The position numbers and the translations under genes are program-made. 64,000 bases of DNA, from assembly GCA_044892525.1 (NCBI GenBank), contig CM097887.1:119142397-119206396 (forward strand), written 5' to 3'. Origin of the DNA: Schmidtea polychroa (taxonomy: Eukaryota). The notes under the pieces were generated by a model. It worked only from the letters and a program-made list of their open reading frames with translations. It was not told the DNA's origin and did no database searches. This document shows positions 1 to 34,463 of this stretch, one piece after another (position 1 is the stretch's first letter; every line of letters starts with the position of its first letter).

Positions 1-9
1 TCAGTTGAA

Positions 10-1020: not shown

Positions 1021-1402
1021 TCCTGATATTGTGTCGTTATATAGTAATAGTCAAACTGGTGGAGAATTGCCATATTTTATGGGTAAGCAATATGGATCCG
1101 GATGGTTGCAAACAATTGGAAGGTTCGCACTTCCAATACTTAAAAAGATTGGTTCATTTGGCATGAGAACAGCAAAGGATGTGATAATGAAAGATCAAAA
1201 AATACTACCAACATTGAAAAGACATGCAATGAATGAAATTTGGAAATTGATGCCAAGTGCAGCAAAGATTTCTAAACCAAATGAAACTAAAAAACCTCCA
1301 ACATCAACACCACAACAAATTTTGGGTAAGCGACGAAAATCTCGTATAAACAAAAGATGGAAAGGTCGTGGAACAATATTCGAAAATGATGATCTCCGGT
1401 AA
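1013..1402 (+). CDS. Polinton basic core/maturation-substrate protein
   Basis: 129 aa. QTGG..PYF.GKQYGSGWL..IGRFALPILKKIG motif and Lys/Arg-rich C-terminus; sits between the minor and major capsid genes. Homolog at 19093-19494. Confidence 0.7.
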   Translation: MSNPDIVSLYSNSQTGGELPYFMGKQYGSGWLQTIGRFALPILKKIGSFGMRTAKDVIMKDQKILPTLKRHAMNEIWKLMPSAAKISKPNETKKPPTSTPQQILGKRRKSRINKRWKGRGTIFENDDLR

Positions 1403-2615
1403 AACTGAATTGTGTATTTTTGATCGTCCGTCTCCACAAGTAGTAATTGAAAATGGAATATTTGAAGATGTATTTCCTATGAATTCAATTACTGATTCAA
1501 GGAATGATGTAGAATTTTTTGTTAACGGTTCACAGACTGAATATTTAGATTTGAATGACACTCTATTATCCATTCAGCTGAAGGTTGTAGATAAAGACAA
1601 TAAAGATCTGGCAGATGGTGTTGATGTAATTCCAACCAACTACATGTTTCATACTCTATTTAAAGATGTTATTCTGGGTTTTAATAATATCAAAATCGAA
1701 GGTGGCAACAACACATATGCACACAAAGCTTTAATTGAAACAATTTTAAACTATAATGGAGATACAAAAAGTATTTGTCTTGCGCCGATGGGTTATGGAA
1801 GTAAAGATTTTAGGAAAACATGGATTGCGAAATCAAGACTGTTTTCAATGTGTTCATCATTACAACTAGATTTTATGGATCAGCCTAAATATCTACTTCC
1901 AGGAGTTAATGTACATATTCGTATGAAGAGATCAGACTCAAAATTTTGTTTGGATACATCTGTAGCTGGAGCATCACCAAAATATCAGTTGGTTGATGCA
2001 AAATTAATGGTTCGCTGTGTACGAGTTGAGTCATCAGTGTTGGCTGGCCATCAGATTGGTCTTAATTCACAACATGCGATTTATCCTATCAAAACCAAAG
2101 AAATTGTTGCCTTTGCAATAAGTAAAGATTCATCCTCATTTTATAAAGAACAAATATTTGGCGATAAACGTTTGCCAAATTTTATTCTTGTAACCTTCCA
2201 ATCAGAAGCACAATATAATGGTTCATATACAGAAACTAGCTCAAAATTCGCACATTTCAGTATAACTTCTTTAACTTTATCAAAAAATTCCGATTATCGT
2301 GAAACATATACTCAAGATTTCGACAACGATAACTATGCTGCGACCTATATGCAATCTATAGTTCGAAATATGGGTTATTTAGATAAGAATTTAAATTGCG
2401 GAATCGACATTGTAGATTTTAAGACCAAATATCCTTTCTTTACATTCATTTTGGCTCCAGACTTTGATTGGAATCAAAGTCAATTGCCACAAAATGGAAA
2501 TCTGAGACTTGATATTAAATTCAACAAGGCTTTAACATCTCCTGTATATGTAATTATTTATGGAGTTTTTGAAAGCGAAATACAGATTTCAGCAAATCGG
2601 TCAATTCTAGTTTAA
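1386..2615 (+). CDS. Polinton major capsid protein (double jelly-roll, PY-type)
   Basis: KTELCIFDRPSPQ, EYLDLNDTLL, DFMDQPKYLLPGV and G.LRLDIKF motifs. Start placed at ATG 1386/1389 by comparison with the copy-B start MISAKSELCIF (ORF track starts at 1368). Confidence 0.88.
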   Translation: MMISGKTELCIFDRPSPQVVIENGIFEDVFPMNSITDSRNDVEFFVNGSQTEYLDLNDTLLSIQLKVVDKDNKDLADGVDVIPTNYMFHTLFKDVILGFNNIKIEGGNNTYAHKALIETILNYNGDTKSICLAPMGYGSKDFRKTWIAKSRLFSMCSSLQLDFMDQPKYLLPGVNVHIRMKRSDSKFCLDTSVAGASPKYQLVDAKLMVRCVRVESSVLAGHQIGLNSQHAIYPIKTKEIVAFAISKDSSSFYKEQIFGDKRLPNFILVTFQSEAQYNGSYTETSSKFAHFSITSLTLSKNSDYRETYTQDFDNDNYAATYMQSIVRNMGYLDKNLNCGIDIVDFKTKYPFFTFILAPDFDWNQSQLPQNGNLRLDIKFNKALTSPVYVIIYGVFESEIQISANRSILV

Positions 2616-2628
2616 ACAAAGATGAAGT

Positions 2629-3013
2629 ATGGAGTAAGTTTACTTTCTGATAAACGATTTACTTGATTAGTTCTGTTCAGCTTAATTGTATTGCATCAAA
2701 TCTGTTTGGAGACAGGTTTTTAGGAGTTTATCCGCTGGATAAAATCCCTTTTCTTGAAAGTAACAATGCTTTAATAGTCAATACCCAATCCTCAAGTCTT
2801 GATGGCGAACATTGGCTAGCAGTATTTGTTAAACCTGAAAAGATTAAAGTGTTTGATCCGATGGGTTACTATTATCCGCCTCTATTAGTGTCGAAGTTAT
2901 CGAAATTATCAAAACCTATCGTGTACAATAGAATTCGTTATCAAGAACCGCTAACAGTTACATGTGGACAACATTGTATTGTTTGGTTATGTTTTGAGTT
3001 TAATAAATATTAG
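2629..3013 (+). CDS. Adenain-like (clan CE) cysteine maturation protease, spliced (intron 2634-2670)
   Basis: IVNT...GEHWLAV (His), FDPMG (Asp), Q.....TCGQHC (Gln/Cys). The only suitable ATG is at 2629: ATG GA|gtaagt...gattag|T TCT GTT CAG gives MDSVQLN. Confidence 0.88.
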
Positions 3014-3156
3014 TTGGTGTTCATTTCTTTATTTTCAAAAATAACTAAAATAACACAGTTTTTGTACAATATTTTATTAAATAACAATAACAACTCTTTA
3101 TATACAAAAAATAAAATGTCTGTTTGAGGAAATTTGACAGTTGATTTCACATATAA

Positions 3157-6100
3157 TCATGCAAATATATTATCATCATTATCAACAATATTTATACTAT
3201 AGTGTCCATATGCAAAACTTTTGTTCCGACCCACCCATACCCTTTTATCATCCTTATTTGACAGAGCCAACTTTGTTGATTTAAATGTGTAAAGTTGATG
3301 ATTTTTGGACCCAAGCCTCGTTTGTATGACTTTAGGTATTTCCATTCCATTAAAACAGTCGATGTATGATTGATGATCTATCTCAGTTTCATTCAATCTA
3401 ATACCTTTGGCTTTAATAGTTTTCTTTGGACCACCCAACAAACTATAAAGCTTTGGCCGAAGAAATATCCATTCATCATATAGGACTCCCTTACTTTCAT
3501 CCTTAAACTTTCCTATAACAGAATCCAATCTTCTGTTATACAGCGGATGAGACGAATTATAATTAGATGCATCCAATAGATTATCTTGGATCATAGCTTC
3601 TAATAATGTTTGCAATTTAAGATTCTTAATTTCCAAGAAGAATGAATCCGTATCCCCTGCTGCTATATTAATCTCACAATTGAACTGTTCACGATACTTT
3701 TGTAGTTCTATATACTGCAGCTCATACATTCTTAGTTTGGAGAGATCTAAAACTGTTTGTTCAATATACGAAGGTCTATCCAAACATACAACATCAGGAT
3801 TCATAATTGCAGCTATTAAATCATCTGCAATCTTTATACTTCTCTTGAAGGTTGGTTTTGATGAATATGTTACCATTTTTCTTTGTGAATTGCACAACCT
3901 TAAATTCATCCTCTTCTTTAAATTTTCCACTGTTTTCCCATATAAACTGTTGTTTAATAGTTTATAATATCCCTTCTCCAGTTCAGATGTTGATTGAGCC
4001 CTCAATTTGGTGTTGGCTTCCACATATTCCTTGAAAATAGTTGATTGGTTAAACTTGATTGCCCGATGTATATTTGTTATTTCAACTCCTAAAAACATAT
4101 ACATTTTCAATAGTCGCCAATGAATTACATAGTTTTTCTTCGGGTAATGTGTTAACAGAAGCTTTTCCACTTTTGTTCCTTCTGGACACATCTTCTCTGG
4201 TGCAACAGGTAAATCGTCTAATAAATCATGAATTTCATCTGGAATATTCATATCAACCTCCGACGTATATCCATATGGTAAATTCTCTAGTTTTGATGAT
4301 TTACACTCTTCTAGAATAGTGTCCAAATCAGTATGGATCCATTCAAACTTTCCATATGGCAAACTCTGACTAAGTGCCCATCCATACAAGTTATTTATAT
4401 CGATATATAATAACTCTGTATTTTCATCTCTTCTGACTTGATGTTTATTAACGAAAGTCATACCTCCTCGAATGCCAGCTTCATAATAATTATACATGTC
4501 ATTATCTTGCAACAATTCAATAGGTCTATCCAATGACATTAATGCCGATGCCCATGTCATTCCCGGAATACCGAAAAAATTTAAAGGTTCCAATCCATTA
4601 TGGGCTAGTGATTTAGTTCTGAATTGTTGAAAGTAATCTGCTAAAAGATATACATCCAACTTTAGATATATCATCATATAGTCTAAAAGGGTTTCACATC
4701 CGGTTTCAGACCATATGTTCACTGCTTTATCATATGCGGCTTGTGACACTCCTTCCCAAATTGGTGGCAATTCTCTGGTTTCTCGTAGAACTTCCAGGCT
4801 TGTGGCAAAATAGTATGGAAAAATACCTTTTGAATCCTGTATTGTTCCCGTAAATGCTGCATTTGTAATTGGTAAGCTGTTTATTGTTTTTACTGCATTA
4901 TCCAAAGATTCATTTACAAACTGATATGAATCAATGAATTTGATCTTTATTTGCTTACAATGCGCAATAAGCGTAAGAAATTTTTCGGATGTTGTCGGAA
5001 TACAACTCAAATTCCAGTGAGGGAATTTATTTATGCCATATTTTAAAATATGATGCATATCATAACCTCTCAGGTTATGAAATACTACTGGAAGCACTCG
5101 ACGTACTCTTCTTGAAAGATTACATTTTCCACATGCCGCACCTAAATATTTCCCGCTGAAATGATCATGATCTCGAACCAAATGATCACAGTGTTCCTTA
5201 CATATATAACAAAATGATTGCATATTAAAAGAGGATTGTTCCGTTGGACTGAGAATTAAAGGTTGTTTACCATTTCTCTGGTAATAATGATTTACTTTAT
5301 TTTCTGCTATTTCCTCTACTTTCTTTAAAAAATCAAATATACAATTTAACCCAATAAATTGAAAATATGAGGAAGCTCCGCTAAAATTGTTTATCAGCAA
5401 AAGTCCAGCTGAAATCGGTAAGTGTTTCTGATGGTATTGCTGATCGTCTGGTAAAATAGATTCGAAATCAGCATAGATTACGAAAGGTGGAGTCACTTTC
5501 TTCGACCAATCTTTGAATCTGAGCTCTTTTTCTGTTGGCATAACGTACAAAGTTGTCCCAAGCTGATTTTTCTTACATAAAGCCAGATGTCTTTCATATG
5601 TCAATTGTCTCCGAAATCCATTTAGACAATTTACACACCATATACATTGAATTCGAACTGTACAATTATTGGATACATGACAGTTCATTAACCTGTTGAT
5701 ATTAGGTATTCCAACGTAATGGTAATTATTACTTTCACTTAGTAATAATAAATATATTGGTGTAACATCTTTAACCTTTGTCCTCCGAATTATGTCTATA
5801 TTCGGATGTTTCATAACAACATCATCATCATCATTATTTAAATATGTATCATCCGACTCGTATGAGAGAACATTGATCGCCAATCCTGGATTCTGATCTT
5901 CAAATTTCTTTATGTCATTCAATGTTGTCGGAGGGTTTTCCAAATCGTAATTTACTTCATTCATGTACCGATAATATTGTGACGGTCTGTTACGGTTTTC
6001 ATGAATGTCTTCGTATTTCAATATAGACAAAACGCTGTAGATAAAACACAGATTGTCTTGATTTTGGATGTTTATAATTTTATTCTTTAATGATGCCGGG

Positions 6101-7380
6101 GTTCTTATGTGTCGATGTCCAGACAATCGACTAATTTCGGCAAACTTTGTTATTTTAAAATTAATCTCCAGTATCCTGTTAAGACGCCAACTGCTACCCA
6201 ACTCCGATCTAATAGCAATTTTCTCATTCAAACTTTCGATTCCTTCATCTAAAAAGTCATCTGTTAATTTTGTGGCTCTATTTGAAATTCTTGCAGTCTT
6301 CAGCTCACCATCTTTGACGAATTCTGCATTGATCCCGAACTGTATCTTAACGCTCTTCATTTCATTTATACAAGCGTTTAATTTTATCAACAACGTTGGT
6401 GGAATAACTATTTTTTGTATATTATAACAAGATATGTCCAGTGTGATAATTCTATGTGTTCTGTATAAATCACATTCAATTTCCGGTTCATCTGATATTC
6501 CTGCTCCTGTTTGAAAGTCATCAACTAGTGAGTAGTGATCTGCATAGTCAGTACTATCACTGTCAACATTCGATATATTTTCGTTTTGATCATTGAAATC
6601 TAGTTCTTCTATTATTTCAAACGATCCATTTATTATATCAATTTCTTCTTCTTCAGATCTTCCGACGTCTTCGCACCTTGAACTTCCAACTTCTTCACGC
6701 CTTGAACTTCCAACTTCTTCACGCCTTGAACTTCCTGCTTCTTTGCGCCTTGAACTTCCAGCTTCTTTACGCCTTGAAGTTCCAGCGTATTCGCACCTTG
6801 AACTTCCAACTTCTTCACGCCTTGAACTTCCTGCTCCTTTGCGCCTTGAACTTCCAGTTTCTTCATGCCTCGAATCTTCTTCCTCCGAATCCATGATTAC
6901 AATTATTTCTGAGTTTGATATTGCATTTTCTATTTTCTCCAATCTTGCTTTTTTATTTTTAATTAAGTGAGTGGAAACCTTTCTTTTGATAAGCTTATCT
7001 TCACGCCTTGAACTTCCTGCTTCTTTGCGCCTTGAACTTCCAGTTTCTTCATGCCTCGAATCTTCTTCCTCCGAATCCATGATTACAATTATTTCTGAGT
7101 TCGATATTGCATTTTCTATTTTCTCCAATCTTGCTTTTTTATTTTTAATTAAGTGAGTTGAAACCTTTCTTTTGAAAAGCTTATCTTTACGCATCACAAA
7201 TTGATTTAAATGTGTCTTATGCGTGTTATAAAAGGACATGTAGGGATCGGAACTTAAAGTTTCGCAATATGGGCATAAAAAGTAATTTTGTTGATAATAT
7301 GTTTTGCCATAATATGTTTGCATGATTTTATGACAGCTTTTATTGTGACTACTGTTTTGACAATAATTTGGGTATAACAC
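3157..7380 (-). CDS. Protein-primed family B DNA polymerase (pPolB) with long N-terminal extension
   Basis: 1407 aa open frame. ExoI IYADFES, ExoII FHNLRGYD, ExoIII YLKLDV; endonuclease-VII-like Zn motif CYIC..RDHDHFSGKYLGAACGKCN; PolA DINNLYG, PolB KLLNNSLYGKT, PolC GDTDS. True start uncertain (GTG 7380, or a later ATG). Confidence 0.95.
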   Translation of the reverse strand: MLYPNYCQNSSHNKSCHKIMQTYYGKTYYQQNYFLCPYCETLSSDPYMSFYNTHKTHLNQFVMRKDKLFKRKVSTHLIKNKKARLEKIENAISNSEIIVIMDSEEEDSRHEETGSSRRKEAGSSRREDKLIKRKVSTHLIKNKKARLEKIENAISNSEIIVIMDSEEEDSRHEETGSSRRKGAGSSRREEVGSSRCEYAGTSRRKEAGSSRRKEAGSSRREEVGSSRREEVGSSRCEDVGRSEEEEIDIINGSFEIIEELDFNDQNENISNVDSDSTDYADHYSLVDDFQTGAGISDEPEIECDLYRTHRIITLDISCYNIQKIVIPPTLLIKLNACINEMKSVKIQFGINAEFVKDGELKTARISNRATKLTDDFLDEGIESLNEKIAIRSELGSSWRLNRILEINFKITKFAEISRLSGHRHIRTPASLKNKIINIQNQDNLCFIYSVLSILKYEDIHENRNRPSQYYRYMNEVNYDLENPPTTLNDIKKFEDQNPGLAINVLSYESDDTYLNNDDDDVVMKHPNIDIIRRTKVKDVTPIYLLLLSESNNYHYVGIPNINRLMNCHVSNNCTVRIQCIWCVNCLNGFRRQLTYERHLALCKKNQLGTTLYVMPTEKELRFKDWSKKVTPPFVIYADFESILPDDQQYHQKHLPISAGLLLINNFSGASSYFQFIGLNCIFDFLKKVEEIAENKVNHYYQRNGKQPLILSPTEQSSFNMQSFCYICKEHCDHLVRDHDHFSGKYLGAACGKCNLSRRVRRVLPVVFHNLRGYDMHHILKYGINKFPHWNLSCIPTTSEKFLTLIAHCKQIKIKFIDSYQFVNESLDNAVKTINSLPITNAAFTGTIQDSKGIFPYYFATSLEVLRETRELPPIWEGVSQAAYDKAVNIWSETGCETLLDYMMIYLKLDVYLLADYFQQFRTKSLAHNGLEPLNFFGIPGMTWASALMSLDRPIELLQDNDMYNYYEAGIRGGMTFVNKHQVRRDENTELLYIDINNLYGWALSQSLPYGKFEWIHTDLDTILEECKSSKLENLPYGYTSEVDMNIPDEIHDLLDDLPVAPEKMCPEGTKVEKLLLTHYPKKNYVIHWRLLKMYMFLGVEITNIHRAIKFNQSTIFKEYVEANTKLRAQSTSELEKGYYKLLNNSLYGKTVENLKKRMNLRLCNSQRKMVTYSSKPTFKRSIKIADDLIAAIMNPDVVCLDRPSYIEQTVLDLSKLRMYELQYIELQKYREQFNCEINIAAGDTDSFFLEIKNLKLQTLLEAMIQDNLLDASNYNSSHPLYNRRLDSVIGKFKDESKGVLYDEWIFLRPKLYSLLGGPKKTIKAKGIRLNETEIDHQSYIDCFNGMEIPKVIQTRLGSKNHQLYTFKSTKLALSNKDDKRVWVGRNKSFAYGHYSINIVDNDDNIFA
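6655..7190 (-). repeat. Coding repeats in pPolB N-terminus: 27-nt tandem units plus a ~175-nt duplication
   Basis: Units GAACTTCC(A/T)(A/G)CTTCTT(C/T)(A/G)CGCCTT encode GSSRR(K/E)E(A/V). The block KRKVSTHLIKNKKARLEKIENAISNSEIIVIMDSEEEDSRHEETGSSRRK occurs twice. Confidence 0.95.
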
Positions 7381-8464
7381 ACCTTAAAATAAATAATGAT
7401 TTAAATATTTATTAAATGAATTTTATTTTATTAAAATAATTCGGGTTTCCCTTTTGTGTTCCATATATTTTGAGAAAAAAGTTTTATAATCACAACAATG
7501 TGTAGTTTATTTTATTCAAGTGTAAGACATCCGACAAAAAACCATTACTTTATAAGTTAAAAATGCTAAAGGTAAACGGATGCATTTGTAAACAGTTTTT
7601 ATTTATTGACTATTTTTTTAGTCAACAGAGGTGATTATGATTTCATACCTTATGTTTACGTGAATACAGATTTCTGTGACCAAGCTATTATGAAAGTGAT
7701 GTGATTTCCAGTGTACCATGGAAAGTATGCAATAAAGCTAGATCAGTAATATTGTATTCTTATTGATACATAAAGAATTCTTTGCGTCTCCTATATAGTA
7801 CTGATGATAGCAAAAACAATTACTTGTAATGTTTATATTATTTAAATAATATTAAAAATAAATTAAAATTATTATAAAATTTATTAAAAAAATATTAATG
7901 TTGTTTAGTTTAATATTATAACTAAGACGATCCAATTGACATTTTTACCGTTTTTGTCATTTTTACCATATATATTTTTTTTTTAAAAAAAAACACATTA
8001 TTTATGTTTAAATTTGTTTAAATATAATATTAATTATATTTTTAAAAGACACACAATGGAGAAAATCTCAAATTCACAAAGATTTGTATCTATTTTCAAT
8101 TTCAATTTATTAAATATATATATAAAATAATCATCCTTAATTAAAATCTAATATATAAAGATGAAAATTTGTTTGTTTTCTATAGAATTCCCCACCGTCG
8201 GACCTAGGATGCTGAAATTTTACACGTGGCCCTCATTTGACTCGGTACAGGTCATAGACTATGTTTCAACCCCAGGTGACTACCCCTAAGTACCCTTAGT
8301 CGGATTTGTTTTGTCTGTCCGGTCAGCAATTTACCATATAAATAATTTATTATATGCTTGCTACTTGAAGTTAAAAGTAATATAATTTAGTCAAAAATTT
8401 TTAAACAGAATTCAAACTTATAGAATTTGTATTTTATTTGATTAGTGAACCAGTTTGCAATTGG

Positions 8465-9190
8465 AAAATATTACCGGTTATTTTTGATTTAAATTGAAGG
8501 GTTTTTGATTTTACAAATTGAAATTTATTTTGAAAGCTTTTCTTATTGTAATTGAACATAGAATCGAAACTTATAAAATTAATACTGGAACGTATTAACA
8601 TCATTAAAAAATTAATTTAAATTTAATATTATGATAAATGAAAGCGGGTAAAACATTTAGTTTATTATAAAATTTATTAAAAAATAGTATTTAATTAAAA
8701 TTTAATTTATTATAAAAATTTAAAACTAACATTTAGCATAGAAATCTTCCATATCATTTCCTTGATCGATATCGCAAACTATTTTCTAAACGAAAAACTT
8801 AATATATATATATATTAAATAAATATTACCGGAAAAATATTACCGGTTATTTTTGATTTAAATTGAAGGGTTTTTGATTTTACAAATTGAAATTTATTTT
8901 GAAAGCTTTTCTTATTGTAATTGAACATAGAATCGAAACTTATAAAATTAATACTGGAACGTATTAACATCATTAAAAAATTAATTTAAATTTAATATTA
9001 TGATAAATGAAAGCGGGTAAAACATTTAGTTTATTATAAAATTTATTAAAAAATAGTACTTAATTAAAATTTAATTTATTATAAAAATTTAAAACTAACA
9101 TTTAGCATAGAAATCTTCCATATCATTTCCTTGATCGATATCGCAAACTATTTTCTAAACGAAAAACTTAATATATATATATTAAATAAA
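8465..9190. repeat. ~369-bp near-perfect tandem duplication (2 copies)
   Basis: TTACCGGTTATTTTTGATTT starts at 8471 and 8840, and the following sequence is repeated nearly identically. Confidence 0.92.
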
Positions 9191-9608
9191 TAAAGTTTAC
9201 CGTTTGGTTATTAATATTTGGCATTCTTCTTCTTTTATTCTGATTGAATAATATCTAAAAGAAAAGAAAATAAATATTTAACAAGAGCAAAATAAAATCT
9301 TACTTGTTAGATAAAAATTTATTGATTAAATGAAATTTAAATGTAATATTAAAACAATAGTTAATCTAAGCAACTATTGTTAGCAACCAAATAGAATCTT
9401 CTAGAATTTTTTTATATAAATAAGAATATTCTTTTTATTCATAGATTTTGTTCATAGATAAATAATAACTAATTATTGTATCTAAATATTTATTGTTACC
9501 AATCAACTAGAATGTTCTAGAATGTTCTAGAACATTCTAGGTTGATCTAGAATGTTATTATTAATATGTAAGTAATAAATATGAATTTTATGCAAGTTAA
9601 ATTAACTA

Positions 9609-10042
9609 TCAAAGTTTATAAATTTTTATTAAATTGACAAAAAATATAATGAAACGTTTAAACATAGTTCTTAACCAAAAATGTAACTCTAATTTTTTTA
9701 TATATTTCCAGTCACCATTTTCTTTGATCCATGGGTAAATTTTTGTAATTTCTTGCACTGGCCAGTTCATATATTTTGGATGTTCATTTGGACATAAAAT
9801 AAGAATGTTTCTGACGTACATTAAGCTAACGATGACTTTAGACCAACATATGCCATCCTGAAACAACGATTCAAAGACATCCTTGAATGTTTTTCCTGAT
9901 TACCTTCCGATGATAAAATAGAAGAGAAATCAATGGTACATCGAAGCTCTACTTCTTTTATTATTTTTAATAAACAATTTATTGTTTGATCATCACTTTT
10001 ATAAATTAAACCATTGACAATGGCGATTATGTATTCATTCAT
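9609..10042 (-). CDS. Bcl-2-like protein, split by a 1-nt frameshift in an A5 run (plus-strand T 9890-9894)
   Basis: Adding one A joins ORFs 9821-10042 and 9609-9866 into ~144 aa with BH1-like TFKDVFESLFQDGICWSKVIV, BH2-like IYPWIKENGDW and a hydrophobic/basic tail. Confidence 0.78.
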
Positions 10043-10197
10043 TGTAAAAATGAATGTATCTTGAAATTATTATGCAAGACTAATGCATATTTTGATTGGT
10101 TAATGTAACAAGTATTTGATTTGTTGATAAAATGAACAAATGAGATATGTATGTGAGACAGTGTGTGTATAGAACTTAAAGTTTATCATTATTTCAA

Positions 10198-10608
10198 ATG
10201 TTGAATATGAAGAATGAGCAACCGTTATTTAAAGCAACTTATATTTTTCATGAGCATCAAATACATTTACTAGTCAATCCAATCAATTACAATTTGTTGA
10301 TTCCTGTTGAACTAGTGAAAACTAGTTACAATTACTGGATTGAAGAATTCTCTCAAGAAGATCAAGAAGCGATTACTACAATATTTGGACGAATCAACAA
10401 GCAACTTATAGTTAATGAAAATGGTTCATTCATAGGCGGTCCATCAACGAAATTTTATGATGAAGACGAGAATCAAATCCCATTTAAACCTAATGCTAAA
10501 TGGAATATGAAAATTCGCATTCAAGGTTATAAAATAGCGCCAAGTACAGCAATATTACCTATATGGAAAATTGTAAGTGGAAAATTGCAAAGAAATTATG
10601 TATGTTAA
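10198..10608 (+). CDS. Polinton accessory protein, possibly an OB-fold ssDNA-binding protein
   Basis: 136 aa. The C-terminal block MKIRIQGYK...ILPIWKIV is shared with ORF 16496-16693 in element B. The SSB assignment is resemblance only. Confidence 0.55.
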   Translation: MLNMKNEQPLFKATYIFHEHQIHLLVNPINYNLLIPVELVKTSYNYWIEEFSQEDQEAITTIFGRINKQLIVNENGSFIGGPSTKFYDEDENQIPFKPNAKWNMKIRIQGYKIAPSTAILPIWKIVSGKLQRNYVC

Positions 10609-10747
10609 TATCTTATGTTATTTTTATTAAATAAATGTTTCTGTTTAAAAATCGTGTTGTTATGATATCATAATTTGGTTGTCATAATAATATTTAAAAT
10701 TTAAAATAATCAATATAATTACCTAGAGTTATCCATTATTTTCAATA

Positions 10748-11083
10748 ATGTTAGTAAATAGTAATTACCGTCGAATAATGGGTTGCGAAAAACCTATTGA
10801 AAGCATACATTATAATATTAAAGATGTTCATCTTCAATCTTGTACAATTACTATTGATATCAAACAACTAATTAATTTGCAATATTTGTCAAAGAAAACA
10901 AAATGTGTATATGAACCAGAAATATTCCCGGGTTTGCGTCTCATATCTTATAACCCCTTGTGTGTAAACTTGTTTTCTAGTGGAAAAATAGTTGTACTTG
11001 GTTTAAAAACTTTAAATTATAATTGGATTGTCAACAAAATTATAAATGATGTAAATGATTTGATTGGTTCACAAAAACGATAA
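10748..11083 (+). CDS. Single-repeat TBP-like (TATA-binding fold) protein
   Basis: 111 aa. LQSCTITIDIKQLINLQYL..YEPEIFPGL..P..VNLFSSGKIVVLGLK aligns by eye with TBP repeat 2 (YEPELFPGL..LIFVSGK.V.TGAK). Only one repeat is present. Confidence 0.82.
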   Translation: MLVNSNYRRIMGCEKPIESIHYNIKDVHLQSCTITIDIKQLINLQYLSKKTKCVYEPEIFPGLRLISYNPLCVNLFSSGKIVVLGLKTLNYNWIVNKIINDVNDLIGSQKR

Positions 11084-11116
11084 ATATTGTACACTTTAAC
11101 ATTTGTTTCATTTATT

Positions 11117-11476
11117 ATGATGTCACAAGTTTCTGAAATCGGTAAATAAATATATTTTATTCTTAAACTTTTAAAATTATGTTTAGATTATCAAATAGAA
11201 ATTCTAATTAATAAAGTGTTTGAGATTTATCCTGAAATCAAAGATGAAATTATAAATTATGCTCCGGAAATTGCACCAGCCAAAATATTTCAGGCAACAG
11301 GGATTAACATAGAGCGCATTATTTTTCACCATAAATTTATGATGTATGGTTATGAAAAGCAAACTCAATTACTAAAAGATTCATGTTGTCAATATCAATG
11401 TCAAGAATGTATTACTTACAAAAGAAAACAAACAGTAAACATTCTACTCAACGAATTGTATAAATATTTCAAATAG
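11117..11476 (+). CDS. Small spliced accessory protein with Cys cluster (intron 11142-11186)
   Basis: ATG ATG TCA CAA GTT TCT GAA ATC G|gtaaat...tttag|AT TAT CAA joins in frame with ORF 11216-11476; contains CCQYQCQEC. Confidence 0.6.
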
Positions 11477-11826
11477 TTTTTAATAAATGTTTCATTGTTT
11501 TGAAAATTTAATTAGAAATAGTTAATATTTTTAAAATTGCGCGCGAAAAATAATTTTTAAAACCAAGATTCGAGATCTCTGATATGAATTACATATAAAA
11601 CAAAAACATTGGTATTAATATCTCTATTTATATTGGCTCTATATATTAATCAAATGAGTTTATTTAAACAAATATTCATAGTTGACGCAATAACAGTATA
11701 CATTTGAACAAAGATTTGAAATCTCCATTCAAAAATACTATAGAAAGCTGAAAGTCCCATCAAAATATGTAAATTTTACGATGCACTGTCATAAATAGAA
11801 TCGTTGAAAATATTTCAAAGTCCGTC

Positions 11827-13422
11827 GGACATAGCCGAATTTTTGAGAATTATCGATTGGTTTTACTTTTTCTTAATTCCTGAGAGAACCAAGAAATTTT
11901 TCGAGGATTTTATTTCGGAATCTTCTTAGTTGAATCAAGACGCAACTTTTTTGTTAAGGATGTCTCGACTAAATATACTTGGTTCCCAATGTTCCAAAAA
12001 TTATTCCTTAAAAACGTGAAATTTATATTGAAAAGAAATCTTTTCGTTGATTTTCTTATAAAATAATCTGTGTCGACAAATAACAAATCTTTTTTCGTGG
12101 AAAATGTCTGGGTGAAATCTTTAATGTAAGAAAGGCACATCTGACTAAATTTTGCACTTTTTGCACTTTTTGCACTTTTCACTTAAAAATCAATATATGC
12201 GCGATAACTCATCGATCAAACGCGCAATAACTCATCAGTAGGGGGGTGGGGGGTATATATGCGCGATAACTCATCGATCAAACGCGCAATAACTCATCAG
12301 TAGGGGGTGGGGGTATATATGCGCGATAACTCATCGATCAAACGCGCAATAACTCATCAATCAAAATCCGTGATAATTCATAATACATTCGGACATAGCC
12401 GAATTTTTGAGAATTATCGATTGATTTCACCTTTTCTTAATTCCTGAGAGAACCAAGAAACTTTTCGAGATCTTTATTAAAGAATCTTCTTAGTTGAATC
12501 AAGACGCAACTTTTTTGTTAAGGATGTCTCGACTAAATATACTTGGTTCCCAATGTTCCAAAAATTATTCCTTAGAAACGTGAAATTTATATTGAAAAGA
12601 AATCTTTTCGTTGATTTTCTTATAAATTAATCTGTGTCGACAAATAACAAATCTTTTTTCGTGGAAAATGTCTGGGTGAAATCTTTAATGTAAGAAAGGC
12701 ACATCTGACTAAATTTTGCACTTTTTGCACTTTTTGCACTTTTCACTTAAAAATCAATATATGCGCGATAACTCATCGATCAAACGCGCAATAACTCATC
12801 AGTAGGGGGGTGGGGGGTATATATGCGCGATAACTCATCGATCAAACGCGCAATAACTCATCAGTAGGGGGTGGGGGTATATATGCGCGATAACTCATCG
12901 ATCAAACGCGCAATAACTCATCAATCAAAATCCGTGATAATTCATAATACATTCGGACATAGCCGAATTTTTGAGAATTATCGATTGATTTTACCTTTTC
13001 TTAATTCCTGAGAGAACCAAGAAACTTTTCGAGATCTTTATTAAAGAATCTTCTTAGTTGAATCAAGACGCAACTTTTTTGTTAAGGATGTCTCGACTAA
13101 ATATACTTGGTTCCCAATGTTCCAAAAATTATTCCTTAGAAACGTGAAATTTATATTGAAAAGAAATCTTTTCGTTGATTTTCTTATAAATTAATCTGTG
13201 TCGACAAATAACAAATCTTTTTTCGTGGAAAATGTCTGGGTGAAATCTTTAATGTAAGAAAAGCACATCTGAATAAATTTTACACATTTTGCACATTTTG
13301 CACATTTTGCACATTGCACTTAAAAATCAATATATGCGCGATAACTCATCGATCAAACGCGCAATAACTTATCAGCAAGGGGGAGGGGGAGGGGGGGTTA
13401 TATATGCGCGATAACTCATACT
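11827..13422. repeat. 564-bp tandem repeat (~2.8 copies) with nested 60-62 bp G-run subrepeats at the putative terminus of element A
   Basis: GGACATAGCC at 11827, 12391 and 12955. Subrepeat GCGCGATAAC at 12199, 12261 and 12321, separated by GGGGG(G)TGGGGG(G). Confidence 0.95.
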
Positions 13423-14419
13423 GATTCATGGGGCTCACATCTACCTACTAATGTGATTTTTACTTTGCATTAATAAGTCAGTAGTTATCATTTAAAAGAA
13501 GAATGTTTTGTAAATTAGAATTCATTAGTCTTTCATTGTAATTTAAATTATTTTGAATTCCACGTGGTGATAAGTTGACAATTATTCATTTTTTGATGAA
13601 AATCAACATTTTTGTTAAATTTAAAAAGGTTTTTCTACTGATTGTAATTAAATATATTTTTGAAGATAGATAAAAAATTAATTTTAAAAAATACATTTCA
13701 TAAAATACAATAAAGAATATTTAGTAGTTAGTTGTAAGTATGTCTTTGTTTGAGAGTTAGTTAGTACGTGGTATCATGTTGTAAGTATTTGTTAGCACCT
13801 AGTTAAAAATATTTAATAACCGATTGTCGGTAACTGTTGAATTATTATTTTTATTATTATTATTCCATTAAAATTTGACATTGACTTTGAAAAATATTTC
13901 ATTGAAATTAACTTAAAAAATTAACTTAAAAATTATTTCATTAAAATTTTCATTAAAAATTAACTTAAAAAATTATTTCATTAAAATTTACTTTTAAAAT
14001 TAACTTAAAAAAAATTCCATTTAAATTTTCATTAAAAATTACATTTCTCAAAAAAGTAGGTGGTTATTCAAACTTTTGATAATAAATTTAAAAATCTTAC
14101 TTAAATTTACTTATTTAGCTTTAATTTTAAATTTTGAACCTTAATTTTTCTTAATTTATCCTTAATTTACCTAATTATTCTTTATTTCTTAATTTTACAC
14201 CATAATTTACTTAACAACTAAATATAATCCTTATTTTCATATTTAACCAATAATTTCATGTGGTCATTGATTAATTGACGAAGATTTGCATCTAAAATTA
14301 ACATTGAAAATCCCAGAAAACTTTCATCTTAAATTGACTTTAACTTTAATATTTTAGATCATTGATTAGTTAATTTAAAAATTAAACATTAATTTACCTA
14401 TTTAACCAATAATTTCATG

Positions 14420-15430
14420 TGGTCATCTAGTTGTAAGTGTTTGGTATCTAGTTGACAGTGCTTAGTACTAGGTAAGTTACTTGGTTGTTAGTACTTGGTT
14501 GATAATGCTTAGTACCTGGTTGATGTTGGTTGTAAGTACTGGGTAGGTGGTAGTTAGTTGTTAGTATCTAGTTGTAGGTACTTAGTTGATAATGCTTAGT
14601 ACCTGGTTGTTGTTGGTTGTTAGTACATGGTAGGTGGTAGCTAGTTGGTTGTAGGTACTTAGTAGTTGGTTAATAATGCTTAGTACCTGGTTGATGTTGG
14701 TTGTAAGTACTCGGTATCTGGTACCTAGTTGGTTGGTTGTTTTGGTTGTATGTACTTGGTAACAGGTAACTGGTTGTTAGTAACTAGTTGTAGGTTGTAA
14801 GTGTTTGGTATTTAGTTGACAGTGCTTAGTAGTTGGTTGTTGTTGGTTGTAGGTACTTGGTTTCAGGTAACTGGTTGTTAGTAACTAGTTGTAGGTATCT
14901 GGTTGTTGTTGGTTGTATGTACTTGGTAGGTGGTAGCTAGTTGGTTGTAGGTATCTAGTTGTAGGTATCTGGTTGGTTGCTTGTTTTTGGTTGTTAGTAC
15001 TTGTTAGATGGTTGTAGGTACTTAGTATCAGGTAACTAGTTGTTAGTAACTAGTTGTAGGTACTTGGTATCTGGTAATTTGTTGTAGGTACTTGGTATCT
15101 AGTTGACAGGGCTTAGTACTTGTTTTCTAGTTGTTAGTACTTGGTTGGTGGTAGCTAGTTGGTTGGTTGTAAGTACATAGTTGGTTGTAGGTACTTAGTA
15201 GTTGGTATCAGGTTGTTGTTATCTAGTTGTAGGTATCTGGTTGATGTTGGTTATAAGTAGTTGGTAGGTGGTTGTAGGTACGTAGTAGTTGGTTGTTGTC
15301 GGTTGTTATTATTTGGTATCTTGTATTTGGTATCAGGTAACTGGTTGTTAGTATCTAGTTGTAGGTATCTGGTTGCAAATACATGTTCGTAAGTTACTGG
15401 TTGTTGGTACTTAGTTGTTGGTTTGTTGTT
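14420..15430. repeat. G/T-skewed degenerate short-unit array
   Basis: Shuffled units such as TAGTTG, GGTTG, GTAGGTA(C/T)CT and CTTAGTA over ~1 kb; no long ORF; flanked on both sides by similar AT-rich blocks. Confidence 0.85.
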
Positions 15431-15689
15431 GAATTATTATTAAAATTTGTCTTTGAAAAATATTTCATAAAAATTTCCATCTAAAATTATTTTAAAAATT
15501 TCCATCTAAAATTATCATAGAAAAATATTTCATAAAAATTTCCATTAAAAATTAACTTAAAAAATTATTCCATAAAAATTTCCATTAAAAATTACCATTG
15601 AAAAATATTTTATTAAAATTTTCATTAAAAAATTTCAATTCTCAAACACCTTCTATTATTTCAACTTTTTGTTAATAAATTTTAAAATC

Positions 15690-16215
15690 TTACTTTAATT
15701 TACTTTAATTTACTTATTTAAAAAATTATTACTTTAATTTACTTATTTAATTTTAATTTTAATTTTTTACTTTGATTACTTAATTTTAAAATTTGGACCT
15801 TAATTAACTTTAATTTAATTTTTTAGAACCTTAATTTAGTTATTTGAGCCCATTCATTACTTTAATTTAATTTTTTAGGACCTTAATTTACTTTATTTTA
15901 ATTTTTTTAGAACCATTATTTACTTAATTTATAAATTTGAACCTTAATTTACTTAGTTGAGCCCTTATTTAACTTTAATTTTAAATTTTGAACCATTATT
16001 TACTTTAATTTAAAAATTTGAACCTTAATTTAGTTATTTGAGCCCATTCATTACTTTAATTCAAAAATCTTAGCCCATAATTTACTTATTTAGACCATAA
16101 TTTACTTTATTTCAAAAAAAATCTGAACCTTGATTTACTTAAATTTAATTTTTTAGACCCATCATTTACTTAAATTTAATTTTTAGAACCATTATTTACT
16201 TTAATTGAAAAATTT
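15690..16215. repeat. AT-rich degenerate tandem array
   Basis: Recurring TTACTTTAATTT...GAACC/GAGCCC units of roughly 35-45 bp. Confidence 0.7.
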
Positions 16216-16495
16216 ACTATGCGTTTTTAATGTAAACCACCTTTGCTATTGACATTCTCATGACCAAGGAGATCCCCTCACTATAGTCTGAAAAATCCAT
16301 GCTTTTTTATTGAAGACTACCTTTTTCTATTGAAATTCTCAGGACCAAGGAGAGCCACCCAAATAATATTTATCCTTGGCTTGTTTATTGAAAAAAAAAT
16401 TTTGTATTTAAAATCCCAGAAAACATTGGGCATTACGGCAACAATTATGTAATCAAAAATGTCTACGGAAAAAGTTATGCAATATTTTAGAATTA

Positions 16496-16693
16496 TTGTT
16501 GGCTATCAATAAAAATATTCAATTCAATGAAAACTTTACATTTATGAATTGTGCTAAAGATTATGCTTTAGAAAATATTAAAGAAGAAAATGAAAATTCA
16601 CATTTTATGATAAAAATTCAAATTCAGGGTTTTAAAGAAGGAAAAGAAACAATCAGCCCTATATGGAAAATAATTGATACTAATATATTATAA
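16496..16693 (+). pseudogene. Partial homolog of element-A ORF 10198-10608
   Basis: MIKIQIQGFKEGKETISPIWKII versus MKIRIQGYKIAPSTAILPIWKIV; no clear ATG start. Confidence 0.6.
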
Positions 16694-17422
16694 GTCTTTA
16701 TTTGTTTCTTATGTTATGGTATACATTATAATTTAATTAAAAATATTGCATTTAAAAAATTTTTTTTATTGATAAATTTAAATTGATTAAATAAAATAAT
16801 TAAATTTAAATAAAATCATAAATTATTATTATCTAATAAATTCAAAATTGTTTTAATTTTTACTTTGAGTAAATTAAATTAAATTCAAATTTGTAAACTA
16901 AATTAAAATGAAATATAATATTTAAATTAATATTAATTTAATTAAAATGAAAATATCTTTAAATACTGAAAAATATATATAATACTTACATTTTATCATG
17001 TTTGCATTAATTTTCTTGGAATTATTTCGAACCATTTTATCATTGTTGGTGTTTAAGTTTTTGTTGTTCATGTTATTTGAGTGGTTGCAAATCTTGCTAT
17101 TGACATTGTTCATGTTATTTGAGTTGTTGTAATTGTTGTTGTTGTTGCAATTCATTACCTAGAAAACATTATAAGAGAATTATTAATTAATTAATTACAT
17201 AAAACTTACAAAAGTTTGGGTATTGATAAAAGTGACTTTTAAATGAATAGTTTTCATTTATATACTACATATTACACAACAATGATTGAATAAAATAGTA
17301 ACCAATAAAATTCAAGAAACCAAACACGTAATCACATACCATTAAATTATATTTACTAGTAGGATGACATAAAAAATTACAAACTAACAAGATAATATTT
17401 ATTTGATTAAATTTTCTTATAT

Positions 17423-17807
17423 TCAAAGATCTTTCATTGACTTCAACCACGCTAAACAATGTTGCCCACATGTTTTTGTCAATGGACTTTGATAGCGAAT
17501 TTTATTATATTCAATTGGCATTAACAATGATTGAAGTTTTGATATTAATAGAGGAGGATAATAAAACCCCATGGGATCAAATGCATATATTTTTCCGGTT
17601 TCACATAAACTGCGAGCCAATGCTCTCCCATGAGATTACAAGATTGAGTATTTACAATTAAAGCCTTGTTTACATCAATATATGGTATTTTATCTAATGG
17701 AAAAACTCCAAGAAATTCAGCTCCGAACAATCTTCGACCTATGTATTCAATCTGAATAGAACTATTATCAATAAATTAAAGTAATAAAAATGAAATTCTT
17801 ACTTCAT
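17423..17807 (-). CDS. Adenain-like protease of element B, spliced (intron 17762-17802), 1-nt frameshift
   Basis: ATG AA|gtaag...aatag|T TCT ATT CAG gives MNSIQIEY. GEHWLAV, FDPMG and TCGQHC are present. Frame broken in an A5 run (plus-strand T 17590-17594). Confidence 0.85.
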
Positions 17808-17869
17808 TTTTAATAATTATTGTTTCCTAATTTGGTTTATAGTTCAAGCCAATCATTTTCAAACTTTAT

Positions 17870-19096
17870 TTACACTAGTACTGTACGATTGGATGTAATT
17901 TGAATCTCTTTTTCAAAGACGCCATAGACTATTACAGAAATTGATTCTGTTAGAGGTGTTCCAAATTTAATATCAAGTCTTAAATTTCCTTGCTGTGGCA
18001 ATTGACTTTGATTAAGATCAAAGTCTGGAGCCAATACAAATGTAAAGAATGGATACTTTTCTTTAAAGTCAGACATACTAATTCCACAATTAATATTCTT
18101 ATTAAGGTAACCCATGTTTCTAATTATTGACTGCATATAACTTGTACTATAATTATCATTTTCAAAATCTTGACTATATTTTTCACGATAGTCGCTTCCT
18201 TTCAATAAAGTTATTGATTTTACATTATTGTGGTCGTACATTGAATAAGAATTTGTTAGTGATCCATTATTTCTTTTATTTCTTTGAAATGTTACAAGGA
18301 TAAAATTTGGTAATCGCCGATCACCAAAGATTTGTTCTTTATAAAAAGAAGAAGATCCAGTAGGTAACGAAAATTCGACAACTTCCTTGCTTCTCAAAGG
18401 ATAAATTGCATTTCTTGAAGCAAGTCCAATTTGATGACCAGCTAAAACGGATGGTTCAACTCGAACTCTTCTTACCATTAATTTTGCATCTAATAATTCA
18501 ATTTTAGGTTCTACTTTTGTACATGTTAAACTATGTGATGGACTTGATCTCGTCAATTTAATTTGGACACTAACACCAGGTAATAAATATTTTGGTTGAT
18601 CCATAAAATCAAATTGTATTGGTGAACATAATGAAAATGGTTTAGATTTTGCAATCCACGCTTTTCTTATATTATCATCTTCACTGTACCTCATACCTTC
18701 TAAACATGTACGTTTTGTATCATGATTGTAATTTAATATGGTTTCGATTAATGCTTTATGAGCAAATGTATCATTTCCTCCTTCAACTTTAATAGAATTA
18801 AAAATTAATTCAGCTTCTTTAAAAAGAGTTTGGAAAAAGAAATTGTTTGCAGTTACAACAGAATCATCAGAAATATTTTCACCTACATTATTTACAACTT
18901 TCAACTGAAGATAAAGTAAAGTATCATTCAAATCTAAATATTCGGTTTGAGATCCGTTAATGTAAAATTGAATTGAAGAGGTACCAGTATCCGTAATTGA
19001 ATTCGTTGGATAAATATCTTCAAATGAACCATGTTCAATTACTGCTTGAGGTGATGGTCTATCAAAAATACATAATTCAGATTTTGCACTAATCAT
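17870..19096 (-). CDS. Polinton major capsid protein (element B)
   Basis: 408 aa, intact; same motifs as 1386-2615 but clearly diverged. Confidence 0.88.
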   Translation of the reverse strand: MISAKSELCIFDRPSPQAVIEHGSFEDIYPTNSITDTGTSSIQFYINGSQTEYLDLNDTLLYLQLKVVNNVGENISDDSVVTANNFFFQTLFKEAELIFNSIKVEGGNDTFAHKALIETILNYNHDTKRTCLEGMRYSEDDNIRKAWIAKSKPFSLCSPIQFDFMDQPKYLLPGVSVQIKLTRSSPSHSLTCTKVEPKIELLDAKLMVRRVRVEPSVLAGHQIGLASRNAIYPLRSKEVVEFSLPTGSSSFYKEQIFGDRRLPNFILVTFQRNKRNNGSLTNSYSMYDHNNVKSITLLKGSDYREKYSQDFENDNYSTSYMQSIIRNMGYLNKNINCGISMSDFKEKYPFFTFVLAPDFDLNQSQLPQQGNLRLDIKFGTPLTESISVIVYGVFEKEIQITSNRTVLV

Positions 19097-19494
19097 TTTT
19101 CGAATATAGTTCCAAAGCCTTTCATTCTTTTGTTTATATGCTTCTTTAATGTTTTTCTGCGTTTAATCATTCCACCTTTTTGTTCATTCTCTTGTTTATT
19201 TAAAACATCAAATACTTTATTAATTACAGTAGGCAAATGTTGAATTACATCAGGTAGTGAATGTTTAATTTCAGATAAAACATTTGATTTTAAAGCAGGT
19301 AGAATTTTTGAATTGTTATTTATTACATCATGTGCAGTTTTCATACCAAAATTACCTATGCGTCTAAGAATTGGTAAAGCAAATCGACCTATTGTTTTTA
19401 ACCAACCTGTTCCATATTGTTTACCAACAAAATATGGTAAATCTCCACCAGATTGACTTTTACTATAAAAGTTTACAATATCAGGATTATTCAT
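19093..19494 (-). CDS. Polinton basic core protein (element B)
   Basis: 133 aa; QSGGDLPYFVGKQYGTGWL..IGRFALPILRRIG; basic C-terminus. Confidence 0.7.
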   Translation of the reverse strand: MNNPDIVNFYSKSQSGGDLPYFVGKQYGTGWLKTIGRFALPILRRIGNFGMKTAHDVINNNSKILPALKSNVLSEIKHSLPDVIQHLPTVINKVFDVLNKQENEQKGGMIKRRKTLKKHINKRMKGFGTIFEK

Positions 19495-20515
19495 TTATTT
19501 TACGAAAATGTAGTGTTAAATGTGTTTTGGTGTCTTTTGAAAATTTAACTAAATTTCCACTATCGTTGCGAATATTAATTTCAATGTTGTTTATAGATGA
19601 AGATGAAATTGGAAGGTACATTGGGTTCTTTATTTCTAACTGTACTACCTCTCCCTGTTCATATCTTTTAATCCATATCGATTTTAATAGAGGAACTCTT
19701 ACATCACCAACATTTATTGGTTCAATGATATTAGAATAAATAAACATTTGTTGATGAATTTTAAATATTTTTGGAATTTTCACACCAACAAAGTCTTTTT
19801 CATTATAAGTTTGATTCTTTAATCCTAAAGCTTTTGTTAATTTTTGAACAAAGGTAATATTTGAAATATCTACAAGTGTTATTTTTACCAATTCTTGATT
19901 TTGAAGATGTATTTCTTTAAATGGAGATGGATTAATTGTCATTAAATATCCTCGCAACTCTGATAAAGTAGTTAAGAATAATTCATCTTCAAAATAATGT
20001 TCGAATTTTGTCTTGATATCGTAATTTATAGTTATCCCAATTTGTTCAATGATATTATTTTCAGTAAATTTAGGTAATTTAATTCGACAATGGTCAGTTT
20101 TGCTAATGATTGATATGGTTTTTAATTCAAACTTAGATGCAGGTTTGGTGTCAAGAAATGATATTTTAAATGGAACATGTGGACAAACTATCACTAGGTT
20201 TTCATATCTTTCCAAGAACACATCAACATCTGGATTATACGTAGAATTTAAAATTTCTAAGATTTTGTTTTGATTATCAATTTTCAAGTATTTAGTTTCT
20301 TCGCATGATTTTTTAAATTCGTATTGTACCCATGAATTACTGTAATACGGAAAATGATTATACACAAATGTAAAATCAATCAAAGCTACTTTCCACTTCC
20401 CATTCAAATAAATTGGGTTTTGAAATTCAACTTTAAAATTACTAGCATTATTATCAGGATAAATAAGAGTACAACTATTACTAGGTAAAATCATATAAAA
20501 CTGGTTTTCCTTCAT
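19487..20515 (-). CDS. Polinton minor capsid protein (element B)
   Basis: 342 aa; termini homologous to 10-1020, central region divergent. Confidence 0.8.
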   Translation of the reverse strand: MKENQFYMILPSNSCTLIYPDNNASNFKVEFQNPIYLNGKWKVALIDFTFVYNHFPYYSNSWVQYEFKKSCEETKYLKIDNQNKILEILNSTYNPDVDVFLERYENLVIVCPHVPFKISFLDTKPASKFELKTISIISKTDHCRIKLPKFTENNIIEQIGITINYDIKTKFEHYFEDELFLTTLSELRGYLMTINPSPFKEIHLQNQELVKITLVDISNITFVQKLTKALGLKNQTYNEKDFVGVKIPKIFKIHQQMFIYSNIIEPINVGDVRVPLLKSIWIKRYEQGEVVQLEIKNPMYLPISSSSINNIEINIRNDSGNLVKFSKDTKTHLTLHFRKINE

Positions 20516-20520
20516 AATAT

Positions 20521-21644
20521 TTATTTAATCAATTGGTTTTCAGATATCCAGCTAGGATGTTTATAACCATGCCATTTCACATAGTATTGTTTATATTTCC
20601 CGTCCGATTTAGTTTTTAAAATCTCTTGAATTCTGAAGATTGTGGGTGATGGAATGACTTGTAGTTCTGGTTCGTAGAATTTGCCACTGACTTGATCGTT
20701 TTCATTATCTGTAATAAAATACATGACCAGATTTTGATTAGTATCTATTTTCGATATTTTAAAAACTTCATCACTCCAATTGTTATCAAAATTCTTGATG
20801 AATGGAGAAGCACTGATTTTACTTATTCTAACATGGTCTCCTACTTTATATTTCGGCTTTTTTGTTTTTGATTTATCTTGTTGTGATATCCAAGTATCAA
20901 TATTATTTGTTGAATAAATATCGATTGGTCTCATTCCATTTATTCCTCTATGAGGTGAAAAATTGTAACTGTAAATTATTTTCGACAATACATTTATCCA
21001 CGTTTTATTGCCTTGATATACAAAATATTTTTTTCAAACGATCTCTTAAAGTACGATTGAATCTTTCCACGTGCGCTGCTTTATATTGTGAAAATACTGA
21101 GTAATGATTTATTCCTTTGATAATTTCTTTAACTTTGCTATTATAAAATTCTTTACCTAAATTTAAAATTAATTAAAATTATTTAATTTATAATTTTACC
21201 CAAATCTGTTTGTAAATTACGAGGCTGTCCGTCAGCAAATAATGTTTTTAATGCATCAGCCATTTCATTAGCTGATTTAGATTTTGTTGGGATAGCACGA
21301 GCGTATCTACTAAATACATCAATACATGTCAAAATATATTTGTATCCTTTATTAATTTTTGAAAATGGAATCATTTCCATTAAATCCATTTGCCATAAAT
21401 CATTAACACCAAATGTTTTATAAGATCTCGTGGGGAATCTTTTTAACATTGGTTTATTTAGACTGTAGGCTAATTGATTAGATAACCATTTTTGAGTTTC
21501 TTTCTTTGATTTATTTACTCTTTTTGCAAGTTTTTCTACACCACCAAAACCATCTGGATCTTTCGGGTTTGTCCAAATCGTTTTGAGTTTTTTCTCTAAT
21601 ATTTTCTTCTTTGATTTGACCTTTTTGGAAAATGTTTCCTTCAT
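20521..21644 (-). CDS. Polinton retroviral-like DDE integrase with C-terminal chromo-like domain, spliced (intron 21157-21199)
   Basis: WQMDL, IDVFSR, then QTDL G|gtaaaa...tttag|GT KEFYN, then VERFNRTL, and YYVKWHGY at the C-terminus. Removing the 43-nt GT-AG intron joins ORFs 21183-21644 and 20521-20988 into one open frame. Confidence 0.9.
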
Positions 21645-34189: not shown

Positions 34190-34463
34190 TAAGTAAATAA
34201 ATGATTAAGTAAATAAAACTATGGGTAATTAACAAATCAAGAGTAAGAGTCTAACAATTTATTAATATTATTAGTGATTACCACATGTAAAAGCAGTATA
34301 AAATAGGATAGTAAATAGTTGTAATTGTATATAATACTTATTCATTTAGGGGTGTCATCATTGATATCACTAGTATGGTTGGCATTTTCCTCCCTGAGAT
34401 AGACGAATAAGTTAAATTATCATTATAACATAATAGCAATTTCAAATATCGAACTGTTTAAAC

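Follow-up and report, generated by a model that had tools for sequence, protein, structure and literature searches.

The window analysed here is a 64,000-nucleotide (nt) stretch of the Schmidtea polychroa genome (contig CM097887.1, positions 119,142,397 to 119,206,396), which holds two diverged Polinton/Maverick elements, A and B, in opposite orientation, with structural genes about 71-76% alike. The protease genes of both elements and the integrase gene of element B are interrupted by short GT-AG gaps, which are very likely spliceosomal introns. We put the probability at about 0.8 that the protease and integrase gaps are constitutive introns spliced by the host, which would make the output of both proteins dependent on splicing. 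This reading was drawn from sequence features, namely position, phase, conservation, empty sites in relatives, stops when unspliced, and purifying selection on the downstream exons, all of which were observed. Thousands of copies of this virus-like element occur in the genome of the animal; its protease gap would be old and its integrase gap younger. The split genes are laid out as follows; the family labels A-H used below were assigned in the present analysis.

2629..2633, + strand: protease exon 1 of element A (start codon plus two bases), from the sequence; layout repeated in 24/32 scorable loci
2634..2670, + strand: putative protease intron of element A, 37 nt, phase 2, GTAAGT..TTGATTAG, after ATG GA
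2671..3013, + strand: protease exon 2 of element A (adenain-like, Peptidase_C5), with no ATG before the catalytic His
2676..2680, + strand: second acceptor (TTCAG), out of frame, inside a Gln codon, 10 nt downstream; it would make a 47-nt intron
17803..17807, - strand: protease exon 1 of element B, from the sequence
17762..17802, - strand: putative protease intron of element B, 41 nt, phase 2, GTAAGA..GATAATAG, after ATG AA, position as in A
17423..17761, - strand: protease exon 2 of element B; frame break near 17590-17600 in the window copy
21200..21644, - strand: integrase exon 1 of element B (rve core to the second catalytic Asp)
21157..21199, - strand: putative integrase intron of element B, 43 nt, GT-AG, phase 1, GGTAAA repeated at both ends
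20521..21156, - strand: integrase exon 2 of element B (remaining core, chromodomain); frame break near 21035 in the window copy

The coordinates, lengths and phases given for these three gaps in the original prediction were exact, and the anatomy was confirmed at the DNA level. The integrase gap of element B lies inside a Gly codon, two residues past the second catalytic Asp. All 24 protease loci with the splice signature described below have donors starting with GTAA or GTGA, and the acceptors are AT- or T-rich. Without splicing, the protease would read ATG, one codon, and then a stop created by the donor, so that it ends after two codons, and the integrase of element B would reach a stop inside the gap; both results support the claim that output depends on splicing. 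The gaps had also been said to match in size the introns of a host gene, which served as a yardstick.

24652..26054, + strand: host cyclin-dependent kinase (CDK)-like gene, short gaps at 24652-24700, 24849-24893, 25649-25693 and 26003-26054, read from the sequence

The GT-AG gaps of this gene measure 49, 45, 45 and 52 nt on that reading, and those of the elements 37, 41 and 43 nt. The element gaps are therefore slightly shorter, not equal in size.

The protease gap was conserved. All sampled families shared one layout, consisting of ATG, two bases, GTAA, an AT-rich filler, AG, and TCT-(A/G)TT-CAG. This pattern had 2,420 matches in the genome versus 0 for the reversed control (the pattern figures for protease and integrase are counts of exact patterns, not of elements, and are not normalised by family). 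A pattern for an intron-free protease start had six matches, which were considered as real empty sites and rejected as chance, since none of the six was inside a protease. Individual loci were also scored, nine from this genome and the top 26 of 80 from metagenomes; three of these 35 lay at contig edges and were omitted. The signature of ATG, donor, acceptor and frame was present in 24 of the 32 scorable loci (8/9 of this genome and 16/23 metagenomic), and arose by chance in 106 of 48,000 shuffles (0.2%). The metagenomic carriers, at 41-59% identity, represented about ten distinct lineages. Intron lengths ranged from 37 to 47 nt and fell into all three classes modulo 3, with phase 2 always restored. 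Among homologous proteases, 96/149 started with M[DN] and 77/149 with M[DN][ST], as expected of the spliced form, and the ratio of nonsynonymous to synonymous differences (pN/pS) of protease exon 2 between families was 0.16-0.39. Viral contigs contained distant proteases only (24-33% identity).

Two metagenomic loci, L106 and L110 (47-49% identity), had an exact empty site in the protease, and an in-frame Met stood at the expected position in 54 of 77 scorable metagenome loci, mostly distant ones. Trees were built with one or two copies per family and with matches covering at least 70% of the query. The capsid trees used the following gene.

1350..2615, + strand: major capsid-like open reading frame (ORF) of element A, no intron, ending 13 nt before the protease ATG; its homologue in B matches DJR-like weakly

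The capsid tree placed the elements bearing the protease intron in one clade (100/100, 20 rows), and the intronless L106 was nested within it, which suggests one early gain followed by a precise loss; the protease tree was poorly resolved. The prediction that the protease gap, shared by A and B directly after the start codon, predates their split is supported by the pattern counts and by the 24 signature-positive loci. In 6/7 families, family A being the exception, a TATAAA stood 33-35 nt ahead of the protease start codon; the first exon would then span only a few bases. In 7/30 copies of families A and G (L006-L012, family A), a 17-nt tandem duplication at the position of window 2622-2640 doubled the ATG and the donor, which would offer an additional donor and a longer intron of unchanged phase.

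The integrase gap had a different distribution. The integrase of element A, just upstream of the window, was one 366-codon frame with an empty site, and the site was also empty in families C and H and in 14/14 scorable metagenome loci, five of which carried the protease intron. The integrase intron was thus not a shared feature that predates the A/B split, as had been claimed; it may have been gained before the split and then lost in A, which would still not make it common to A and B. Families B and E had non-repetitive inserts of 43 and 42 nt, and families D and F had a G(TAT)nTTTAG insert at the same site. Genome-wide, there were 1,197 patterns of the repeat type, 444 of another AT-rich type and 102 empty sites. 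The repeat-type inserts were 54-238 nt long at the 33 of 37 loci that could be measured, the four without a matched acceptor being left out. Insert lengths showed a floor, with 8 matches at 35 nt or less versus 401 at 36-53 nt, and most of the first 100 of these matches listed were one interrupted 42-nt form. At both ends the inserts carried a copy of TTAGGTA, or of GGTAAA in B, as is characteristic of an AG|GT site that was duplicated. The 43-nt intron was identical in all 28 matched family-B copies (5/33 loci without a pattern match were omitted).

Selection on the second exons was compared. For integrase exon 2, pN/pS was 0.21 between B and E, 0.23 between the intronless A and C, and, for D against F, 0.24, or 0.39 with another F copy that is broken. 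Over all exons the values were 0.13-0.39, and the introns were free in length and sequence. Purifying selection on exon 2 indicates that it is translated; in B and E, where reading through the gap meets stops, this translation needs splicing. However, the claim that the integrase is intact did not stand. In the window copy of element B, integrase exon 2 was open for only 49 codons, versus at least 200 in 22 of 28 family-B copies, and the protease was frameshifted as well, with 71 open codons versus 112 and 116 in two siblings. Both window elements are damaged copies, and the intron accounts for one apparent break, not for all.

Several observations weigh against the explanation by constitutive splicing. 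RNA was checked over window positions 1-3300, that is, for the element A protease only, in three contig runs presumed to be RNA and one DNA-like run; among the runs recorded as RNA, none contained element A. None of the three predicted junctions was seen in these contigs, and the failure of the 37-nt junction 2633/2671 to appear there carries no weight either way. Twelve joints were listed. The only one with GT..AG ends, 2633>2681 (a single contig, depth 19.6, in run X1, presumed RNA), used the downstream, out-of-frame acceptor, 10 nt past the predicted one, and a contig of run X2 continued 7 nt into the protease intron, unspliced. In the integrase, 27/33 repeat-type inserts were in frame and stop-free (6/33 were out of frame), so that translation as poly-Ile is compatible with the sequence in those families. 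The length floor may partly reflect the lengths of the founders. The capsid tree rejected a single clade of the families with the integrase intron (p 0.0004), and two trees from integrase halves did not (p 0.22 each); without family H, the values were 0.055, 0.28 and 0.35. Since the capsid and integrase trees disagree, one gain with losses is indistinguishable from two gains at one site. Finally, no full-length family-B integrase above 81% identity was present among the best 120 of 132 protein-database matches, a weak point because the search favours intronless ORFs.

The most direct challenge is that there is no splicing at all, the protease starting at a TTG within the gap, and the integrase inserts being either translated as poly-Ile or fatal to the gene, in which case intronless helpers would mobilise those families. 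An in-frame TTG was present in 7/24 protease loci, element A included; the stop-free repeat inserts would suit such translation, and the 102 empty-site matches show that the genome has intronless integrase families. However, 17 of the 24 intron-bearing loci, family B among them, had no in-frame TTG, CTG or GTG, so a start at TTG did not account for the proteases, and the phase from ATG through donor and acceptor was kept in 24/24. The purifying selection on integrase exon 2 between B and E, despite the read-through stops, also argues against it, and a freely variable run of 16 to more than 50 Ile next to a catalytic Asp would be hard to reconcile with a working enzyme. We consider this alternative very improbable.

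Neither the DNA-like run nor the genome contained the joined form 2633>2681, and this speaks for a genuine splice site at the donor, 2634. In the one presumed-RNA contig this donor was joined to 2681 and not to 2671. This second acceptor is the basis of another alternative, in which regulated splicing serves as a throttle or switch: the host would choose the near acceptor, giving active protease, or the one 10 nt downstream, giving a frameshift, or would retain the introns, and virion maturation or integration would be limited in some cell states. The downstream CAG was kept in 7/7 families, versus none of 14 other invariant Gln sites that were CAG throughout (135 CAA versus 28 CAG overall), and CAA replaced it in only 14/2,420 genome matches; this preference is the sole basis for a switch. 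The one presumed-RNA joint does use the downstream acceptor and would give an intron of host size, 47 nt, and the available parts of PMC8532177 describe planarian Polintons as targets of PIWI-interacting RNAs (piRNA) and SMEDWI-2 that are desilenced in differentiation. However, a substitution at 2601 had the same depth in X1, 19.6, as the joint. It occurred in 6/30 copies of families A and G, three of them, including the closest copy L015, without the near AG. The joint may therefore come from a damaged copy in which splicing was rescued. The offset of the second AG in metagenome relatives varied (5, 7, 8, 10, 11), with no conservation of position, and families A, C and H have no integrase intron to regulate. 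Only families A and C had an ATG further upstream that shares a frame with the downstream acceptor, so this acceptor is not the general productive one. A regulated switch is, in our judgement, unlikely, and the switch between latent and virion or integration programmes suggested in the original prediction is unsupported.

Under the favoured explanation, the host spliceosome would take out the short GT-AG gaps routinely during expression, and no programme switch would be involved. The protease intron would stem from a single early gain in a clade uniting the families of this genome with about ten metagenome lineages, with precise loss at least once, and would sit behind a TATA-like box and a first exon of a few bases, unspliced RNA yielding a two-residue peptide. 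The integrase intron would have a later origin, inside the lineage of this genome. It may have started at an AG|GT site within the Leu-Gly codons, with TTAGGTA duplicated around an expanding (TAT)n repeat; the insert would at first be in frame and stop-free, be kept above about 36 nt, and then decay to a plain AT-rich intron of 42-43 nt. We advance only tentatively, at somewhat under even odds, the full proposal that the integrase intron was born from a microsatellite in this way and removed by the spliceosome, with every stage still present among more than a thousand copies in the genome: the empty site, pure repeats of 54-238 nt, the interrupted 42-nt form, and non-repetitive 42-43-nt introns that contain stops. 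The same proposal includes the older protease intron, whose pair of acceptors may regulate virion maturation.

The introns could also be real and kept, not by drift, but for shielding the RNA from host surveillance of intronless foreign transcripts or for higher expression, which is compatible with constitutive splicing. In human cells, introns counteract HUSH silencing of intronless transgenes, according to the part of PMC8770142 available. The integrase-intron patterns outnumber the empty site (1,197 + 444 versus 102), and the protease intron would be cap-proximal, given the TATAAA found in 6/7 families. On the other side, introns are absent from the capsid, PX and ATPase genes, and copy number is no test here, as the pattern counts are not normalised by family and the families share ancestry. 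We regard shielding as rather doubtful.

The elements resemble the Polintons/Mavericks (adintovirus-type polintoviruses) of animals in having, in or beside the window, an rve integrase with a chromodomain, an adenain-like protease, a capsid-like ORF, an ATPase and a long polymerase-like ORF. They differ in that the core genes of intact vertebrate Mavericks and of a nematode Maverick are described as intronless, whereas here the protease and, in some families, the integrase are split. Intact vertebrate Mavericks are described as having no introns (PMC8097293, in part), and the nematode Maverick as having intronless core genes with introns in cargo only (bioRxiv 10.1101/2022.07.12.499685, in part). 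The cargo genes of the latter, wasp and krma, likewise carry spliceosomal introns within a Maverick, but they are host-derived there, and here viral core genes gained introns and relatives have empty sites. No report of spliceosomal introns in a Polinton protease or integrase was found in the literature searched, Repbase, subscription journals, Kapitonov and Jurka 2006 and supplements lying outside it and possibly recording them, and the parts available of PMC8502044, PMC6431247, PMC11296320, 10.1101/2023.08.22.554363 and 10.64898/2026.07.28.741278 held nothing on such introns.

A gap of 37-47 nt is too short for a ribozyme. Protist polinton-like viruses have introns within polinton-related elements too, but these are self-splicing group I introns of 309-376 nt in the text available of PMC12220804, whereas the present gaps are AT-rich GT-AG gaps of 37-47 nt.

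For the integrase, the closest parallels concern intron birth. Recent repeat-associated and parallel intron gains reportedly occurred in Daphnia, and in a model attributed to Rogers introns are said to arise when a proto-splice site (AG|GT) is duplicated in tandem. The integrase intron is similar in lying at AG|GT with a short direct repeat at both ends, and a single site could have gained introns in parallel; PMC3488318, in the part available, reviews proto-splice sites together with parallel and repeat-associated gains. The difference is that the filler here is a trinucleotide repeat, in frame and stop-free, and that long, interrupted and decayed stages occur in over a thousand copies of one genome. 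No report of intron gain from a microsatellite or trinucleotide repeat was found in the literature searched.

The result bears on annotation, as Polinton core genes are treated as intronless, so surveys based on ORFs would take these families for defective or annotate shortened forms of their protease and integrase. That about ten metagenome lineages share the protease intron would imply long-term reliance on the host spliceosome. The origin of new introns is a standing question with few caught cases, and the integrase series from empty site through repeat to decayed intron is the most valuable lead; if true, it gives a rare view of intron birth. With empty site, repeat-filled insert and decayed intron coexisting at high copy, splicing efficiency against length and age would be readable from ordinary RNA-seq.

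The host genome is 781 Mb, AT-rich, with four large contigs. Element A carries PX, capsid-like and protease ORFs on the + strand (1-3013) and a 1,408-amino-acid polymerase-like ORF on the - strand (3157-7383). This last ORF had no PolB match in Pfam at E 0.01, and we take it to be polymerase-like from its position, size and motifs. The frame opens just after an AT-rich stretch with an acceptor-like TTTTAAG end (window 7384-7430, - strand), and its N-terminal part contains 24-nt and 186-nt coding repeats (window 6632-7183). Element B carries integrase, PX, capsid-like and protease genes on the - strand (17423-21644). Pfam matches were found for rve and Peptidase_C5, and below the cut-off for Chromo and DJR-like; an ATPase with Walker A, belonging to the Polinton/Maverick gene set, was present in family copies. 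In element A, the 5' end of the ATPase (L051 6600-6850, upstream of the window) was gone together with Walker A, and other sequence with a (TA)n run stood in its place. An intron was suspected there and rejected, because in family copies the frame runs without a break and includes Walker A, the 5' loss being confined to the element A copy.

A short TBP-like ORF (Pfam TBP, E 5.6e-11) lies inside element A at window 10727-11083 (+ strand). Three 564-nt tandem units and arrays of 13-14-nt minisatellites separate elements A and B (window 11825-13390 and 13750-16200). Directly upstream of the element B integrase, where siblings have the ATPase module, is an ORF for a hAT-type transposase with a BED finger and a dimerisation domain (window 21896-23686, - strand), and more hAT and DDE_1 ORFs were found at 32845-36892 and 57371-59137. 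Elsewhere in the genome, integrase exon 1 of family E occurred in tandem at a spacing of about 4 kb and in tight clusters (G000 C1:213932245-213944687, C1:67722145-67857631), and polymerase 5' ends frequently formed inverted pairs a few kb apart.

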